Assembly (NCBI GenBank): GCA_029260855.1
Contig: JAJDCK010000002.1
Location: forward strand, 1 to 58,132
From: Candidatus Saccharimonadota bacterium
GTDB taxonomy: Bacteria > Patescibacteriota > Saccharimonadia > Saccharimonadales > OFTM59
Direction: 5' to 3'
DNA length: 58,132 bases
A program made the position numbers and the translations under genes. Below are positions 51,126 to 57,745 of the stretch, piece by piece (the first letter of the stretch is position 1; every line of letters begins with the position of its first letter). A model generated the notes under the pieces. That model had not been told where the DNA came from, made no database searches, and saw only the letters and a list, made by a program, of their open reading frames with translations.

Positions 51126-51155
51126 GGCCCCAAACCCACATGGCTCGGTAGTTAT

Positions 51156-54100
51156 CTATGTGCTCATTCCAGCCCAAAAAGCAGCATTGGCAGACGTTAT
51201 AGAGTTCGTGAGATTCACCGAGCTTATGGTTGTTTGACCGCCCGTAGTAACAGTAGCAAACTTTGATACAGCAAGCGCAAGACCAACATTACCTAGTCCT
51301 GGAGTAACTGTGCCCCGAGCAAATAATGGCATTGTCGTGCCGTTACAAAGAAACGCAATATAATAATCAGTCCCTAGTATTACTGCTTGGCCGGTGATAG
51401 TTGCTGTTTTTGTTCCTGTGGTGTTCCATTGAGCAGACATGTCTGTTGGAGATAGTTGGAGTAGCGCGCCGTTAGCATCTAACAAGGCCATGCAACACTG
51501 CCCGCCACCTGTAAGCGTGACACCGCCCGTTTGCACGGCCGAGTATAGCTTGGTAATCGTTTCGGACCTGAGCGCTGTAACGCGATTGAGATATATGATG
51601 CCGGAAACCAGCTGCGAGTTGTTAGAGGCAGATTCCGGATCAAGCGTTACAGCGTTTAGGCCGCGCTTTGAGGGGTGGGCAACAAACACGGTACTAATAA
51701 GACTGTCCGAACCCCCTGCCGCATGTGTAGTGGCATGTGTCGTAACCGATGCTGTTGGATAAGCGGCCGACTGCACCCAAGCAGCACCGTTGTGCACTAA
51801 TTCAATTGTAGAGACCGAAGCAGCGGCTGCCTGGGGCTGCCATGTTATGGATGACAGACTTCCGCCCCATGTAATAGCATGGTTACCCGTGCCGTCCTGC
51901 GTTAGAACTAGCATTAGACGTCCACCAGCAACAGGGTGTGTGGGGGCGTATATATCAACCCCCTGGTCAAGCGTTAGTGTGTGCACATGCCCAGACCGTG
52001 AGTCAGGTGTATAACTACCGCCCAGAGACGATGCGCTTCCGGCAGCATGAAGTTCGTGTCCACCCGTCAGCTGCACTAAATTAGTACCATCGGGTGAGAT
52101 AAAACGGAGGGCAGTAGTAGCATTTGGCGTTGGGTCCAATCGGAAATCGTAGTTGATCCCGTATACTCCATTAAACGCCATGCTGCGTCCGCCAGTACCG
52201 TCTTGTGTCAGGAGCAGGGTCAGCTCAGCACCAGGTGTCAAGTTGTTGGGTGAGCTTATTGTCGTCTGACCCGAGCCGTTACCACTGTCCAGTAAAACCT
52301 GGTGGATTCTAGCAACCCGCAGGTTAGGCTTGTATGTCCCTGCTGTCGGAGTCTGCAGGGAAGATCCTCCAGCATTATAGTAGGCGGAATTGAGTCGCGA
52401 ACTGACTTGGTTCCAAGAGATACCATCATAGATAAAAGAAACAGCACTAACCGCACTGGAATTAAAGTCAACTACCGAACCACTTAGCTTAAAAACCGCA
52501 TCAAATGTCACCAGTACACCACCGGCAACTGGCTGAGTAAAGATCAGTGTCAGCTGTTGACCGCGAAAACAAGGCCCACTAGTGTTACCGATTAGATTAT
52601 CCATTACTGGTGCGGCCACTGTTAGCGGGACGTCGGTTGCAAGACTGACTTCATTGATACCGCCTCGGTTTGGATCTGGAGTAAAAGTACCAGTACTCGT
52701 TGTGACAGTCCCTATGGTTCTGACGCCTAATTGGCTCCCGCAGATCACAGAATTGTTAACCGGGTCATTGTTAATCGTACTGACAGCGTGCGAGGCTGAT
52801 TGTAGGGTAATCGAGTTTCGGATTGGGAAGTTAATGAAATCTAGCGCAGATTGTTGGGTAGCCTGAGCACCCCCAAAACCATTATTGCCAGGCAAACGGT
52901 CAATTGCTAATACCCGAAATGCGCAGTTCGCTGAAGCATCTAGCTGCATACCATAACCGATGATTCCAGACTGGCCATTTGAATCTGGTATTCCAAGACC
53001 GTGGCCATTTGAATCAACAATAAAATCGCCCTGGCAACGCGTGGATCTTACGACAACACCATGCCGCCAGTTGTCTTGGGCTTCACACGAAGCGAATACC
53101 TGCCTGCCCGACACAATAAGCCACCCATCCCCATGGTTGCCGTCAAGTCTTCCACAAAAATATGCTTTGCAGGTCGCCCAACGGACATTACCGCCACCCG
53201 CATAAATGCCCTCTAACCCACAGTCGCCAATATGAATATTGACGTGCGTACCATCGGAGGAGCCGTCACGAAAACCTTGTCCGTCACAGGACTCAACCTT
53301 GAGATCAGTTACATGATCACCAGTGCTGCGTTGCGTGCCGATTGGTGTGTTGCCGTCAATCGCCAGACCATGCCCTGACGCTCCGGAAACTACTACATTA
53401 GATACGACGGGCTCTGAATCAACAACACTAAAAGCGGTCGGGGTTGCGGCCTCGCTGGTTAGATAAATACCGTTTATAACCAGTTGCACGCTATCCCCTG
53501 ATGAGTGGCTTGTTGCTGTTGTCCCCTGCCAGCCACGCCCAGTTGGCACGGCAACAAAACCATTAGTTGCAGAAGCAGCCTGCTGAGGTGTCAATGTATT
53601 GCCAGATTTTGCGGTGATTTGAATTGTTTCTACACCTATACGAATACGGAACGGTGCGGTTGGTAATATCGATCCGTCCGACACTGTGAAGCTGGCCTCG
53701 GTTGCACCGTCTGCAATCCCCGAAGTCAAGGTACAGGCCGCGCCATTTTGCTGCCCTACCTGGCGTTTTCTGTTACCACACACCCAAATATTACGAATAC
53801 TAAGAAGTTCCGCTAGACCGTTGTAGGATTCAATGATTCCCGAACCGGTGGCATTAAAAGTTGCTGACCCACTAGTGCCGTTGTATGAAAAAGTAGTCCC
53901 GCCGATTTTGGAGTTATTAGCTAGCAGTATGACACTCCCCCAGCCATCGCCGACCACTGATGCGTGTGACGGCACGAGGATTTTTTCAGAGGTCACATAG
54001 CTACCAGTACCTCTGTCCGGAAAATAAAGCGTGCCACCAACTACGCCGTCTGCCAACATGGCAGCAACTGCCGCTTGAATATATGGGGCCCAGTCGTTTG

Positions 54101-54938
54101 AAGCCGTTGTTGAAGGGCTCGGTGATGAATTGGCAGGGATTGGCCCATTAGCAACAAACCCGACTGGCGCGAATTTGGTAACGTCGTAAACCGGCCCATT
54201 GAATCTATCTACATAGGCTTTTGTGGCAGCATCCTGTGCAGATAGTGGGTCGGACATGTTCGTTGCTTTTTGGGAGTTAAACGATAGATCGCTCGTTGGA
54301 TCAGCAAGCTCGTCAAGGCGTAAAACATCACTACCTCCATCCTTATGGGTGGTAGCGTGTGTTGTTGGGGTGCGCGAATCCGTCAAGCGTGAATCATCTG
54401 CAACAACAACCCCCGTACCATTAATTGTGACTCCACCTGTAAAATCTTTGGCGCCAGTAACGTTTTCCGTACCGGCAAGGTGGACCACAGCACTGTCATC
54501 AGCTTTGCCGCCCAAACTAGTGTCTAACCCTGCTATTTTAGACTGTGCAATCGCAGCTGAATCATTAACGTCGGCGTTAATAATCACTCCTGCAGCTATC
54601 TGGGGACTGGTAGCTGTACCGCTTAAGTCACCAGCAAGCTGAACCACACCTTTGGTAGCAGCGTCAGCATCTGGGGTTCCCGCGCTAACTGTGTTATCTA
54701 CATACTGTTTCGTGGCAGCCTGCAGAGGAGCAGCAGGATCAGCCGGAAGGTTTACCGTACCCGTGAAGGTCGGACTAGCAAGTGGGGCCTTACCGCCTAA
54801 ATCGTTGGTGAGATTAGTAATCTTAGCTTGCGATAGTGGCTTCTGGGTACCGTCAGCATTATGTTCAACACTTAGATAGTCATTGAGTATGCTACCCCAC
54901 GTACCGGAATCAGAGCCGGGACTGGGCAACCTTGCCAT
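51156..54938 (-). CDS. Large phage tail-fibre/tailspike-like protein with beta-helix domain, no signal peptide
   Basis: N-terminal MARLP.PG.D.G.WG.ILN, fibre repeats AATKQYVD / AATKAYVD / TKGVVQLAG, HATTH..GGSD twice, pectate-lyase-like central region, three L.L..TQ..G repeats. Confidence 0.75.
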   Translation of the reverse strand: MARLPSPGSDSGTWGSILNDYLSVEHNADGTQKPLSQAKITNLTNDLGGKAPLASPTFTGTVNLPADPAAPLQAATKQYVDNTVSAGTPDADAATKGVVQLAGDLSGTATSPQIAAGVIINADVNDSAAIAQSKIAGLDTSLGGKADDSAVVHLAGTENVTGAKDFTGGVTINGTGVVVADDSRLTDSRTPTTHATTHKDGGSDVLRLDELADPTSDLSFNSQKATNMSDPLSAQDAATKAYVDRFNGPVYDVTKFAPVGFVANGPIPANSSPSPSTTASNDWAPYIQAAVAAMLADGVVGGTLYFPDRGTGSYVTSEKILVPSHASVVGDGWGSVILLANNSKIGGTTFSYNGTSGSATFNATGSGIIESYNGLAELLSIRNIWVCGNRKRQVGQQNGAACTLTSGIADGATEASFTVSDGSILPTAPFRIRIGVETIQITAKSGNTLTPQQAASATNGFVAVPTGRGWQGTTATSHSSGDSVQLVINGIYLTSEAATPTAFSVVDSEPVVSNVVVSGASGHGLAIDGNTPIGTQRSTGDHVTDLKVESCDGQGFRDGSSDGTHVNIHIGDCGLEGIYAGGGNVRWATCKAYFCGRLDGNHGDGWLIVSGRQVFASCEAQDNWRHGVVVRSTRCQGDFIVDSNGHGLGIPDSNGQSGIIGYGMQLDASANCAFRVLAIDRLPGNNGFGGAQATQQSALDFINFPIRNSITLQSASHAVSTINNDPVNNSVICGSQLGVRTIGTVTTSTGTFTPDPNRGGINEVSLATDVPLTVAAPVMDNLIGNTSGPCFRGQQLTLIFTQPVAGGVLVTFDAVFKLSGSVVDFNSSAVSAVSFIYDGISWNQVSSRLNSAYYNAGGSSLQTPTAGTYKPNLRVARIHQVLLDSGNGSGQTTISSPNNLTPGAELTLLLTQDGTGGRSMAFNGVYGINYDFRLDPTPNATTALRFISPDGTNLVQLTGGHELHAAGSASSLGGSYTPDSRSGHVHTLTLDQGVDIYAPTHPVAGGRLMLVLTQDGTGNHAITWGGSLSSITWQPQAAAASVSTIELVHNGAAWVQSAAYPTASVTTHATTHAAGGSDSLISTVFVAHPSKRGLNAVTLDPESASNNSQLVSGIIYLNRVTALRSETITKLYSAVQTGGVTLTGGGQCCMALLDANGALLQLSPTDMSAQWNTTGTKTATITGQAVILGTDYYIAFLCNGTTMPLFARGTVTPGLGNVGLALAVSKFATVTTGGQTTISSVNLTNSITSANAAFWAGMST

Positions 54939-54940
54939 AG

Positions 54941-55108
54941 TTACGCGCGCTCGCTGTAGATACGCAGTAACATAATATTTGAGCTGGTTTCGGTTTTTCT
55001 GCTTGCTTTTTGCGCACCGAGCACAAGCTTCGCCCCCACAGCCCTAGTATTGAGTTTTAATGAGCTAGCTAGATTGGTTGAATAGTCAAAATGTGTGCTT
55101 CTACCCAC
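54941..55108 (-). CDS. Candidate 55-aa upstream ORF coupled to the fibre gene
   Basis: Manual translation. GAGGAGG 7 nt before GTG 55108. TAA ends 2 nt before ATG 54938. Confidence 0.4.
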   Translation of the reverse strand: MGRSTHFDYSTNLASSLKLNTRAVGAKLVLGAQKASRKTETSSNIMLLRIYSERA

Positions 55109-55201
55109 AGAGAACCCTCCTCGGGTTATTCACTTCATCTTAACAGCATATGTTGGTGTATAGCAATAATCTTTATGGTTAATGGGGTTTTTTGCTGTGC
55201 A

Positions 55202-55417
55202 TCATGTATTGGTACGGTCTTGGCCGCGACGGCGCCTTGAGCGAACAATCCACACACTAACAATAATGCATAGAACGCCAAAGATAATTCCAGGCAATAT
55301 CATCTGCCCCGTATTGGCCAACCTAGACCCATGTTCTGTCACATCGCCGTAGATACTGCTCCCGTAGGCTTCTCGACCATACTGGGCGATGGTCGTAAAA
55401 ATAACTGCTTGCATCAC
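55202..55417 (-). CDS. Small protein with YG repeats and LAxTG sortase sorting signal
   Basis: QYGREAYGSSIYGD, then LANTG + hydrophobic helix + RSRRRR tail. Confidence 0.8.
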   Translation of the reverse strand: MMQAVIFTTIAQYGREAYGSSIYGDVTEHGSRLANTGQMILPGIIFGVLCIIVSVWIVRSRRRRGQDRTNT

Positions 55418-55420
55418 GCA

Positions 55421-55612
55421 CTACCGTCCATAGGGGCTTACGCCGTAGCCAGAGAGGGCTTTATCGTGATCTTGCGTGCTACTTAAACTGCTAAGATTGT
55501 TAAGTATCGAAGTTACGCCTACCACCGCCAGCAACCCGGCTATCATGTACTTAATAAACTCTTTCCTGGACATGTCTTTCTCTAATAGTTCGTGTATGTT
55601 GAAACGTGCCAT
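55421..55612 (-). CDS. Small protein with Tat-like (RK) signal anchor and C-terminal GYGxxxYG
   Basis: SRKEFIK matches S-R-R-x-F-L-K with R to K, followed by a hydrophobic helix. Ends GYGVSPYGR. Confidence 0.75.
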   Translation of the reverse strand: MARFNIHELLEKDMSRKEFIKYMIAGLLAVVGVTSILNNLSSLSSTQDHDKALSGYGVSPYGR

Positions 55613-55722
55613 AGCTACCTTGTTTTTATAGTGTTGCTGTGTTTGTGTGATCTACTCTTGATTGTAATACCTGTTGTGCTTATGTCAAGCTGCTTGGTAA
55701 GTCCTATGTCATAATCAATGCA

Positions 55723-56298
55723 ATGAGTTTGAGAGTTATTAATAATATTTTGGCGTTTGTTGTCATAATCATTGGGCTATACCTAGTGTTGTCCCCTTTT
55801 ATCCCTGACCTCTTATATAAGATAAGAAAGGTGTCACAAAATACCAAAATTCAAGCGCAAACCAGCAAGCTGAATCAGCCACCCATTGAGTCTGATATTC
55901 CTTCTGATAATCGTTTGCAAATACCTAAGCTCTCTCTTGACGAGAGGATCTATGAAGGCCGCTCTATCAATCTTATAAGTAAGGGCGGTACTTGGTTGCG
56001 GCCCTCAACTGCTAACCCAAGTGAGTCTGGCAACAGCGTTATTGTCGGGCACCGCTTCAACTACAATCGACCGGCGACATTTTATAATCTAGATAAGCTG
56101 GTATTCAAAGACAAAATCGCCGTTTTCTGGGAGAAAAAACGATATATTTACGAAGTATACGAGGTCCTTACTGTCAGCCCGTCTGATGTAAGCATAGAGG
56201 CAAGTACCGATAAACCAGGGCTCACACTTTATACCTGCACGCCGCTTTGGACAGCCCGCCAACGATTAGTCATAAAAACAAGGCTGGTTGAAGAATGA
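55723..56298 (+). CDS. Sortase (class D/E-like)
   Basis: N-terminal TM, RLQIPKL, GNSVIVGHR (His), LTLYTCTP (Cys), RLVI (Arg). Confidence 0.92.
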   Translation: MSLRVINNILAFVVIIIGLYLVLSPFIPDLLYKIRKVSQNTKIQAQTSKLNQPPIESDIPSDNRLQIPKLSLDERIYEGRSINLISKGGTWLRPSTANPSESGNSVIVGHRFNYNRPATFYNLDKLVFKDKIAVFWEKKRYIYEVYEVLTVSPSDVSIEASTDKPGLTLYTCTPLWTARQRLVIKTRLVEE

Positions 56299-56411
56299 AA
56301 GAGTGGCATCGTACAGTTTTCCTGTTGGCACTTCTATGTTTGGCTGTTATTTTCTTGCTTTATGCACGGCAGTCTTACGAGCAGAACTTTTTAGAGTCCT
56401 TTAACTACTAG
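56295..56411 (+). CDS. 38-aa single-TM protein coupled to the sortase
   Basis: Manual translation MKEWHRTVFLLALLCLAVIFLLYARQSYEQNFLESFNY. ATGA overlap with the sortase stop. Confidence 0.5.
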   Translation: MKEWHRTVFLLALLCLAVIFLLYARQSYEQNFLESFNY

Positions 56412-56438
56412 TACTAGGTACTTCTTGCTTAGAACAGC

Positions 56439-57413
56439 TCAGCTAACAATAGTCCTTATGTGCCTCCGAGCAGACGGTCTCCTGGCATCAGTTCTTTGTT
56501 GACTTGTCTGATGTCGCGAGTGACCGGTATGATCGGGAGACAGCACATCCATTACCCGTCTACGTATTGGACTTGAAGGCTTTTGAGCCCGATTTGCTAA
56601 ACCTGGTGGTGGCTTTGCGAACACAACATCAGGCGGACTGGTGGTTTTACTATATTGTTCGCTTGGGCTGTTTTGTTGGGTTTGTGCGTGTTTGCGCGAA
56701 CCGCGGTTAGTAACCCAAACCATAATAATGCCCACTTGGTACAAGAATATGATCGGCAGGGCCATAATCGCTTGGTTAAGCGGATCTGGGGTTGGCGTCA
56801 AGACGGCGGCAAGGATAAAGCTGAACACAATAACATAGCGCTGAAACTTCATCATCCCGCCGGGTTTGAGCGGTTTGATTCGGTTAACGAACAACAGGAT
56901 CAGTGGCGTTTGAAATATCAGTGCGAAGCCTATTATGTATGTCAAAGCAAAATTAAAGTATTCGTCAGCCCCGATCAAAGACTGAATGTTCGACCCACCA
57001 AAACTTGTCAGGAAGTGCAGTGCCGCAGGTAAACTAACGAAGTAGCCGAATAGCACCCCAAGAATCGCCAAGATAAAGGCCCATACGACGTATTTTACGA
57101 TAATACCTGTGTGATGCTTCTTCAAAAGTGGTGCTACAAAACAAAAAATCTGATACAACACAAAAGGCAGCGCTGCCACAAAACCGGTTGCAAGACACAG
57201 CTTAAAGATAAAATTGAACCCGCCAACTGGCGACGTATAATACAGGGTCTCTCCCAGTGGCTGCTGAATAAACCAGAGCAGCTTCTCGTGGAACAAATAA
57301 GCTACAGCCCCGAAAGCACCTATAGAAATCAGGCTAAGAGTCAACCTGAGCTGAAGTTCGCGCACATGCTCTATGAACGGTCTGCGAATAGTGCCGTATT
57401 CCGCACTATTCAT
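56439..57413 (-). CDS. tatC: Twin-arginine translocase subunit TatC (divergent, long C-tail)
   Basis: EHVREL..RL, YQ...FVAP.L, G....YF...P, LTPTPDP.NQ...A.P...LY. Confidence 0.93.
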   Translation of the reverse strand: MNSAEYGTIRRPFIEHVRELQLRLTLSLISIGAFGAVAYLFHEKLLWFIQQPLGETLYYTSPVGGFNFIFKLCLATGFVAALPFVLYQIFCFVAPLLKKHHTGIIVKYVVWAFILAILGVLFGYFVSLPAALHFLTSFGGSNIQSLIGADEYFNFALTYIIGFALIFQTPLILLFVNRIKPLKPGGMMKFQRYVIVFSFILAAVLTPTPDPLNQAIMALPIIFLYQVGIIMVWVTNRGSRKHAQTQQNSPSEQYSKTTSPPDVVFAKPPPGLANRAQKPSSPIRRRVMDVLSPDHTGHSRHQTSQQRTDARRPSARRHIRTIVS

Positions 57414-57434
57414 AATCTACCCCCGAAACGTTAC

Positions 57435-57641
57435 TTACTTCTGTTCAGTGTTTTTGTCGTCATTCTGTGATGCTGTTTTGTCTTTTTTATCCATGTTAGC
57501 CAATCCCCCGTCAAACCCTTTTTTGAGCTCTCCAGCTGACTCGCCCAAACTACGTGCTAGCTTTGGGAGCCTTGTTGCGCCAAACAGTAACAGTAGTATT
57601 ACTAATATAATTATTAGTTCCGGTAGCCCTAAACCAAACAT
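57435..57641 (-). CDS. tatA: Twin-arginine translocase subunit TatA/E
   Basis: GLGLPELIIILVILLLLFGATRLPKLARSLG. Confidence 0.95.
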   Translation of the reverse strand: MFGLGLPELIIILVILLLLFGATRLPKLARSLGESAGELKKGFDGGLANMDKKDKTASQNDDKNTEQK

Positions 57642-57716
57642 ATTTTCTCCTTTATTATGGTTTATGGTTATTATACTGTAAACGTAAGGATTCTCCCAAA
57701 TCTATACTTGACGTAA

Positions 57717-57745
57717 TTGACTCTTTGCTAACAGATGTGTATAAT
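57717..57745 (+). promoter_or_regulatory. Consensus sigma70 promoter of rpmE2
   Basis: TTGACT (57717-57722), 17 nt, TATAAT (57740-57745), then ATG at 57756. Confidence 0.85.

Follow-up and report, generated by a model that had tools for sequence, protein, structure and literature searches.

The mini-protein gene and its sequence

The stretch of DNA analysed here (the window) comprises 58,132 nucleotides of a Candidatus Saccharimonadota genome that is 790 kb long, assembled in 18 contigs and 97.7% complete. Names borne by homologues assign the genome to Candidatus Saccharibacteria, order Saccharimonadales. Our subject is a mini-protein of 63 amino acids (aa) encoded in it, which resembles a signal for export by twin-arginine translocation (Tat) with very little attached. 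Its gene lies in a cassette of exactly six genes, encoding a fibre-like protein, a 71-aa open reading frame (ORF), the mini-protein, a sortase, TatC and TatA. The Tat system normally exports folded, often cofactor-bearing proteins, and either the substrate itself or one subunit of a complex carries the twin-arginine signal. Translation of the mini-protein gene gives MARFNIHELLEKDMSRKEFIKYMIAGLLAVVGVTSILNNLSSLSSTQDHDKALSGYGVSPYGR, followed by a TAG stop codon. Its parts are as follows.

55421 to 55612, minus strand: mini-protein gene, 63 aa, Tat-like signal-anchor and YG tail (from the ORF translation, the match to model NF038009 and family conservation)
55580 to 55606, minus strand: N-terminal helix, residues 3–11, consensus I..LL.KE, presumed cytoplasmic (AlphaFold2 helix; conserved alignment columns)
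55550 to 55570, minus strand: Tat-like motif SRKEFIK, residues 15–21, with a capping Ser, invariant Arg16, Lys17 replacing the second Arg, and invariant Phe19
55502 to 55549, minus strand: h-region or membrane helix, residues 22–37, YMIAGLLAVVGVTSIL, with invariant Gly32 (AlphaFold2 helix and family alignments)
55427 to 55450, minus strand: C-terminal YG tail GYGVSPYG, residues 55–62, conserved; the proposed exported, partner-binding part
55661 to 55688, minus strand: promoter-like site TTGACA-16-TACAAT, 49 nt 5' of the mini-protein ATG; a match to 11 of 12 consensus positions only, not functional evidence

Residues S15-R16-K17-E18-F19-I20-K21 correspond to the S-R-R-x-F-L-K consensus of Tat signals but for K17. 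A first, sequence-only reading of the window had pointed out this match, citing it as MSRKEFIKY; the motif is there, beginning at residue 15 instead of residue 1, and the 13 residues preceding it (consensus I..LL.KE) are conserved across the family. The motif is followed by Y22 to L37, an uncharged run of 16 residues containing Gly and Thr, which is the 16-aa hydrophobic stretch of that reading. The passenger of about 25 aa that it had described is likewise seen in the translation, ending in GYGVSPYGR. It had found no clear AxA cleavage site, and two family alignments show no conserved pair of small residues at positions -3 and -1 after the h-region. Measured against a canonical Tat signal, the protein has S15, F19, I20, K21 and a 16-residue h-region, within the usual 12–20 moderately hydrophobic residues, and lacks the two consecutive arginines (R16-K17).

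A conserved family of mini-proteins

The 63-aa ORF is a real, conserved gene, far beyond what chance would produce. A homology search with the single sequence returned the query alone. A profile search of 1.84 billion cluster representatives, at a threshold of E ≤ 1e-3, recovered a family of 1,485 representatives, with lengths of 56–102 aa among the 150 matches listed. In a translated search, 27–28 of 61 same-order genomes yielded homologues, each in an open frame of 60–144 aa. The family is confined almost entirely to Saccharimonadales, and its members are annotated as "hypothetical protein" in database sources. Our literature search found no paper on the family and nothing relevant on Tat in Saccharibacteria, except a note of Tat in one Saccharibacterium.

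Residue frequencies were scored over 261 members. R16 and F19 are invariant in all of them. Position 17 is K in 81%, R in 12% and another residue in 7%, making 93% K or R. R16 is preceded by S, D, T or N, which are good helix caps, in 259 members and by E in the other two. Position 18 is E in 84%, and F19 is followed by L or I. The C-terminal motif is equally constant: every member carries a tail of the type Y-G-x-x-x-Y-G (pattern [YF][GS]xxxY[GS]) ending 0–19 residues from the C-terminus, with GYGSSxYGG as the consensus. In the family alignment, Y56, G57 and Y61 are invariant and G55, S59 and G62 are at least 90% conserved, while G32 within the helix is invariant in two alignments. The sequence-only reading had proposed checking RK.F and GYG..YG in homologues and had named loss of the motif as what would count against it; because both are conserved, that objection does not arise. 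It had also treated RK as the oddity of a single protein, which must be corrected, since K at position 17 is the family norm.

Searches with named models gave one informative match. Pfam and PHROGs returned nothing for the mini-protein. NCBIfam NF038009 (label TatB_1, "twin-arginine translocation system-associated protein") matches it with an E-value of 1.5e-12 over positions 6–65 of 70, and all 50 of the homologues that we tested also match, the best at 1.3e-24. The model describes proteins of about 70 aa encoded with a Tat system; the window protein has 63 aa, with tatC and tatA 0.8–2 kb away. The match is full-length, the size is similar and the genomic Tat link is the same. However, the name states an association without a mechanism, and the score of the mini-protein is 47.5 bits against a curated cut-off of 100, which means that the NCBI pipeline would withhold the family name from it. 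Judged by these scores, the mini-protein is homologous to the NF038009 family yet outside the curated subfamily.

Two other comparisons were rejected. Homology to TatA or TatB finds no support in PF02416, which gave no match, and the TatA/TatB architecture does not apply either, as the order of elements is reversed in the AlphaFold2 model, in which the charged helix precedes the membrane helix. TIGR02811, "formate dehydrogenase region TAT target", scored 14.6 bits (E 0.031) against a cut-off of 48.45. That family (about 66 aa) is similar in being small, made up mostly of a Tat signal, defined by its genomic neighbourhood and furnished with a short conserved C-terminal motif, but the motif is Y-[HRK]-x-[TS]-x-H as opposed to GYGVSPYGR, and this genome is without formate dehydrogenase.

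AlphaFold2, run on a 50-sequence alignment, predicts a short helix at residues 3–11, a break at D-M-S and a long helix at residues 16–45, with a predicted local distance difference test score (pLDDT) of 91–95 in the core; the tail is disordered (pLDDT 51–63). Across the family, the uncharged run is 18 residues long at the median and averages 1.73 on the Kyte-Doolittle scale. The segment before it carries a mean net charge of +1.2, K or R supplies the first charge beyond it in 79% of members, and the mean net charge of the C-terminal part is about +3. Moderate hydrophobicity and a basic c-region are typical of Tat signals, in which they act as Sec-avoidance features, and a basic tail is a poor substrate for translocation driven by Sec or YidC. 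The charge pattern of the family is a poor fit to a C-out tail inserted by Sec or YidC.

The RK motif and the signal-binding site of TatC

The two Tat genes of the window are these.

57435 to 57641, minus strand: tatA, 68 aa (Pfam TatA_B_E, 2.2e-12; TIGR01411, above cut-off)
56439 to 57413, minus strand: tatC, 324 aa (Pfam TatC, 3.5e-53), with a C-terminal extension of about 85 aa

We aligned the window TatC and 19 relatives to Escherichia coli TatC, whose numbering is used here, and the Aquifex TatC structure was aligned separately. H12 and E15 are kept in all 20 lineage sequences and F94 in 19, with Tyr in the remaining one. By contrast, neither Y100 nor E103 is kept in any of the 20, the window having KKHH where E. 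coli has YKHE; Aquifex TatC retains the Glu.

These positions can be read against the 2.4 Å structure of E. coli TatBC with a bound substrate (PMC13323110). In that structure, the first Arg of the signal is bonded through water to E15 and stacked beneath F94, the pocket that receives the Phe is made up of L9, H12, L13 and F94, and the helix is capped by the first residue of the motif (PMC13323110). The second Arg forms a salt bridge with E103 and packs on Y100, facing the lipid head groups (PMC13323110). The cap, the first Arg and the Phe are exactly what the mini-protein family has conserved, and the second position keeps only its positive charge (93%). Since the residues conserved in the mini-protein are those whose TatC contacts are retained, ligand and receptor have changed in step, and the RK rule of the family is explained by the loss of the TatC residues that hold the second Arg. 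This match between ligand and receptor is the strongest argument that the mini-protein would bind the canonical TatC groove.

Compared with canonical Tat signals more broadly, the mini-protein has the helix cap, the first Arg, the Phe, the Leu/Ile and the Lys in register, along with a Gly-rich h-region of 16–18 residues and a basic residue after it (79%). The helix of a TatBC-bound signal starts at the motif, and AlphaFold2 predicts the same for the mini-protein. It differs in having Lys at the second Arg (81%), no AxA site and no folded passenger, as well as in its conserved pre-motif helix of about 12 residues and a cognate TatC without Y100 and E103.

Other features of these translocases may be noted. 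The TatAC systems of this lineage are without TatB, and E170 is replaced by Gln in 19 of 20 TatCs. The relatives' TatCs are 250–387 aa long, compared with the usual length of about 250, with extensions of about 50–130 aa. In the window, the C-terminal 85 or so residues (56439–56700, minus strand) are basic and rich in Pro, Ser and Gln. Such an extension could be a docking site for large cargo.

Association of the mini-protein with TatAC

In the window, tatA and tatC lie 0.8–2 kb upstream of the mini-protein gene. Adjacency to tatA or tatC was seen at almost all loci examined, the usual order being tatA-tatC-mini on one strand (most of 20–21 loci from different families), with the same order in three further lineages of an independent index. 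TatC and the mini-protein each occur in 28 of the 61 genomes and occur together in 26; the exceptions are a weak match, a genome of 89% completeness, and two genomes that have TatC but no detected mini-protein.

Shared ancestry was corrected for with a SecA tree of the 61 genomes, on which the state of TatC changes about 20 times. We took 14 independent contrasts on well-supported branches. The mini-protein and TatC change the same way in 13.2 of the 14 and in opposite ways in none (median p about 2e-4), a pattern of co-gain and co-loss. The Tat link of the mini-protein is strong. Taken together, the curated model, the adjacency to tatA and tatC, gain and loss with TatC and the retained TatC site strongly support a Tat-related role, as the sequence-only reading had supposed when it called the protein a carrier, an adaptor or a Tat regulator.

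What else this translocase might export is less apparent. A six-frame motif scan of the whole source genome gave no convincing candidate for another Tat-motif protein, the remaining matches being Sec-like signals, internal segments of membrane proteins and spurious short frames. The complete genome of a Tat-positive relative (G005, 669 kb) has one doubtful candidate, a 404-aa PBP-like protein with TRRTIFK.

Two relatives have loci that depart from the usual arrangement. In G021, in which the mini-protein was undetected, the RLP-WG motif described below directly follows tatC (C4:116653–116754) in an open frame of only 46 aa, and the locus may be degraded or rearranged. At locus L056 (6282–12195), the mini-protein gene precedes two called products, each longer than 1,100 aa and with Pfam matches to Sigma70 regions 1.2–4, an unusually great length for sigma factors.

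Signal-less fibre-like proteins with a common N-terminal domain

A second family of proteins accompanies the mini-protein and TatC, represented in this genome by a single member.

51156 to 54938, minus strand: fibre-like protein of 1260 aa without a signal peptide (ORF; DUF5907 repeat), the sole RLP-WG protein in the genome
54825 to 54938, minus strand: RLP-WG N-terminal domain of the fibre protein, MARLPSPGSDSGTWGSILNDYLSVEHNADGTQK (family alignment; co-occurs with TatC and the mini-protein)

The consensus of the domain, which we call RLP-WG, is M-x-R-L-P-x-P-G-x-D-x-G-x-W-G-x-x-L-N-x-x-L-x-V-x-H-N-x-D-G-x-L-K. In all 86 genes sampled, the motif begins at residue 2–5, which leaves no room for a signal peptide. 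The bodies of the proteins vary, from about 120 to 2,400 aa, and some have collagen-like GxT repeats resembling the Scl and Lcl adhesins.

Of the 61 genomes, 24 contain RLP-WG proteins. TatC accompanies them in 23, and the remaining genome, which is 89% complete, has the mini-protein. In the same set of contrasts, RLP-WG changes the same way as TatC in 10.5 of 14 (median p about 0.002) and the same way as the mini-protein in 10.9 (median p about 0.001), with none opposite in either comparison. The genes are often neighbours as well: of about 32 mini-protein loci, at least 17 have a same-strand RLP-WG gene as their immediate downstream neighbour, and second copies of the mini-protein located far from tatAC, in genomes G010, G019, G029 and G044, are directly upstream of RLP-WG genes.

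The domain is confined almost entirely to Saccharibacteria-type genomes, and a DNA pattern search with it gave three IMG/VR matches. It also shares 47–60% identity with protein N-termini from six Streptomyces phage records, for example LuckySocke gene 41 and BRock 100814–100924. None of these relatives has an annotated tail function, one is a collagen triple helix repeat protein, and the one context inspected, that in LuckySocke, is not a tail module. Saccharibacteria live on Actinobacteria, and fibre modules are possibly shared with actinophages.

RLP-WG genes also occur on small contigs in the assemblies of Mycolicibacterium agri CCUG37673, Gordonia aichiensis NBRC 108223 and Rhodoplanes sp. 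SY1. A mini-protein gene is present in the M. agri assembly, 31 nt upstream of the RLP-WG gene, and in the Rhodoplanes assembly, and none was found in that of Gordonia. These contigs most likely reflect contamination by Saccharibacteria epibionts rather than gene transfer. Several metagenome-assembled genomes of 0.8–1.2 Mb that were assigned to Acidobacteriota or Pseudomonadales likewise appear to be mislabelled Patescibacteria.

The cassette, its sortase and a second YG peptide

The remaining features of the locus are the cassette as a whole and its two other genes.

51130 to 57745, no strand assigned: 6.6-kb cassette between rpsB and rpmE, absent from same-genus and same-family genomes (tblastx)
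55202 to 55417, minus strand: 71-aa YG-LANTG peptide, containing QYGREAYGSSIYG (the tail motif of the mini-protein), then LANTG, a membrane helix and RSRRRR
55723 to 56298, plus strand: sortase, the cassette's own (Pfam Sortase, 7e-26)

The spacing between rpsB and rpmE is about 40–90 bp in a same-genus genome, whose SecA is 92% identical, and in a same-family genome. Relative to the same-genus genome, the cassette is a single clean insertion or deletion of 6.6 kb. The source genome has four sortase genes compared with three in each of its two closest relatives, the cassette copy being the extra, fourth one. The 71-aa peptide has no N-terminal signal peptide, and it scores 15.5 bits with an LPXTG-anchor model whose cut-off is 15.9. 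The Tat locus of relative G014 has the same trio of a mini-protein, a YG...LANTG peptide and a similar sortase.

In the window, the mini-protein and the 71-aa ORF share one frame and are split by TAG-TGC before a GTG start (55415–55423, minus strand). Read-through of the TAG would join a Tat signal, two YG motifs and LANTG; we rejected this as the normal product, as family members end 0–19 residues past the YG motif. The small ORF of G014 is in another frame and so is a separate gene, which makes the in-frame TAG of the window an ordinary stop, and the shared frame looks like a coincidence. A prophage origin of the cassette was also rejected: it has no phage context, PHROGs gave only marginal matches to the fibre protein, IMG/VR matches number three, and the six Streptomyces phage records that share the N-domain give no tail function.

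Possible functions of the mini-protein

We tentatively favour, with slightly less than even confidence, the reading that the mini-protein is a TatC-docking signal-anchor whose YG tail carries RLP-WG fibre proteins as Tat hitchhikers and tethers them. The protein would be a ligand, resembling a signal peptide, for the TatAC of its own lineage. Its motif, S-R-K-E-F-I-K with a helix cap, and its Gly-rich helix of 16–18 residues would dock in the canonical TatC groove, which in this lineage would recognise one Arg and the Phe, because the residues holding the second Arg are gone. Given that there is no conserved signal-peptidase site, the signal probably stays in the membrane, and the mini-protein would form an N-in/C-out anchor with its basic tail of about 25 residues, including GYGSSxYGG, outside the cell. 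Before export, the tail would bind the RLP-WG domain of signal-less fibre proteins folded in the cytoplasm; TatAC would then take these through the membrane as hitchhikers, with the mini-protein as their tether at the cell surface. In the source genome, the cassette sortase and the signal-less YG-LANTG peptide may add a covalent link to the cell wall. The sequence comparisons show the homology, the synteny, the joint gain and loss with TatC and RLP-WG proteins, the agreement between motif and TatC site and the indel of the cassette; Tat-dependent insertion, the membrane topology and the binding of fibre proteins are steps that we infer.

A hitchhiker needs a signal-less partner encoded nearby, and the RLP-WG proteins, with their genes downstream of so many mini-protein genes and their motif at the extreme N-terminus, provide one. 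Among the roles that the sequence-only reading had named, carrier or adaptor accordingly fits best, given the co-occurrence with RLP-WG proteins and the frequent position directly upstream of their genes; AlphaFold2 predicted no confident docking in a fused chain.

Several observations weigh against the carrier. By the rules of E. coli, the 7% of members that have A, Q, T, H, G or E at position 17 would make poor Tat signals. A mini-protein gene lies upstream of only 7 of the 80 RLP-WG genes sampled, a proportion that is expected if one or two mini-proteins serve up to 13 paralogues, and at three more mini-protein loci no RLP-WG gene occurs within 6 kb. Mere joint travel as a mobile cassette would give the same co-occurrence. 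A cargo of 1260–2400 aa, probably trimeric, would be larger than any known Tat substrate. Finally, we folded a natural in-frame pair of mini-protein and RLP-WG protein (locus L227) as one fused chain, with one TAG read as Gly. The YG tail had pLDDT below 50 and no docking was predicted in this model, which was a monomer built on a shallow mini-protein alignment and gave no contact output; the result lends docking no support and may be taken as weak evidence against it. The RLP-WG N-domain in the fused chain is an extended segment followed by a helix over W-G-x-x-L-N-x-x-L.

A combined MAFFT alignment of mini-proteins and RLP-WG proteins was mis-aligned and was discarded for folding. In such alignments, MAFFT repeatedly overlaid the tail GYGSSxYGG on the fibre motif PGxDxGxWG (54893–54919 against 55427–55450 in the window), both being Gly-rich with aromatics. 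The overlay may be chance, or the tail may mimic or pair with the N-domain motif.

Another possibility is that the mini-protein is a stand-alone Tat substrate, a small membrane protein that TatAC inserts by an uncleaved signal-anchor, as with the Rieske protein, and whose exposed YG tail has a function of its own, such as contact with the wall or the host, and that RLP-WG proteins are only co-regulated neighbours leaving the cell by another route. All of the evidence for Tat linkage applies to it equally, the AlphaFold2 model of one long helix and a free tail agrees with it, as does the fused chain without docking, and it accommodates the three loci with a mini-protein and tatAC but no RLP-WG gene nearby. 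We nonetheless think it unlikely. It leaves unexplained why RLP-WG proteins occur only where Tat and the mini-protein do, with no opposite contrasts, and why second copies far from tatAC are found directly upstream of RLP-WG genes. It also offers no reason for an unstructured tail of 25 residues to need a translocase for folded proteins.

The mini-protein might instead be an accessory or regulatory subunit of the translocase: a signal mimic that permanently occupies or primes the binding site of TatC, a substitute for TatB or a trigger of TatA assembly, with cargo recognised in another way, for example by the long C-terminal tail of TatC. The NCBI name, "Tat system-associated", and the nearly one-to-one tracking of TatC are in keeping with this, and so are the absence of TatB, the change of E170 to Gln in 19 of 20 TatCs and the TatC extensions. 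The mini-protein, however, has neither a TatA/TatB-type architecture nor a match to Pfam TatA_B_E, a ligand fixed in the signal groove would block substrates, and second copies away from tatAC and beside RLP-WG genes are hard to reconcile with a subunit, for which the conserved YG tail would also have no role. We consider such a function improbable.

It is very improbable that the mini-protein gives rise, by cleavage after the h-region, to a YG peptide of some 25 residues that is set free or cross-linked by the sortase and has a signalling or wall-associated function. The short passenger and conserved C-terminal motif would suit a peptide, in a cassette that holds a sortase and a second YG peptide, yet the family lacks a conserved -3/-1 cleavage site, there are no adjacent modifying enzymes, the mini-protein itself is without an LPXTG motif, and a sortase is near only some of the loci. 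That there is no functional Tat link at all, the mini-protein being a small membrane protein inserted by Sec or YidC, Tat-like by coincidence and a passenger of a mobile cassette, is extremely unlikely: the cassette is gained and lost as a unit and the second Arg is missing, but the conserved residues coincide precisely with the TatC contacts retained in the lineage, the C-terminal part is more basic than the N-terminal part, so that the positive-inside rule opposes C-out insertion by Sec or YidC, and adjacency to tatC persists across dozens of family-level lineages whose other neighbours differ.

Precedents and implications

Carriage in trans through Tat has precedents. In the hitchhiker carriers HybO, DmsA, PaoA and the glucose dehydrogenase gamma subunit (PMC4273604, PMC6719666), one subunit holds the sole Tat signal and its signal-less partner is encoded beside it, as we propose for the mini-protein and the RLP-WG proteins. 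For the gamma subunit of glucose dehydrogenase, carriage has been described as the main role, again as proposed here. The known carriers, however, are folded and mostly hold cofactors, whereas the mini-protein has only about 25 unstructured residues beyond its signal; their partners are redox enzymes, whereas its proposed partners are many paralogous fibre-like surface proteins recognised through a common N-domain. A second parallel is found in Tat-inserted anchors, namely the Rieske protein and tail-anchored proteins (PMC10924467), in which an uncleaved Tat signal serves as a membrane anchor. These proteins have a real extracytoplasmic domain, unlike the mini-protein, which is an anchor almost entirely. 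Tat integration of a C-terminal helix, as in the tail-anchored proteins (PMC10924467), is a possible route for the YG-LANTG peptide.

The mini-protein departs from these precedents in three ways: it is a signal only, it has one Arg with a matching TatC, and it probably serves fibre-like surface proteins of one family in an organism without a clear ordinary Tat substrate. Reduction of a protein to nothing but the signal would be new. A translocase and ligand that together lack the second Arg and its TatC contacts would likewise be new and amount to a natural experiment on Tat signal recognition. A third novelty would be a role for Tat in genomes of 0.8 Mb that have no clear ordinary Tat substrate.

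The wider picture is possible, on balance doubtful as a whole: that Saccharibacteria export folded, phage-fibre-like proteins with a signal-anchor of about 65 residues and a single-Arg TatAC, using a common N-terminal docking domain, and then keep them on the cell surface; that the cassette moves between lineages; that in some of them a dedicated sortase and a YG-LANTG peptide provide a link to the wall; and that the system may give epibionts of Actinobacteria their host-attachment fibres. If the carrier model is true, it would explain how large fibre-like proteins without a signal peptide come to be displayed by Saccharibacteria, the RLP-WG N-domain would be a general docking tag, and the six genes would form a compact export and display cassette. 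Saccharibacteria attach to Actinobacteria, and under the same model the fibre-like proteins could be the attachment fibres. Apart from that model, annotators now have grounds for naming about 1,500 "hypothetical" mini-protein families.

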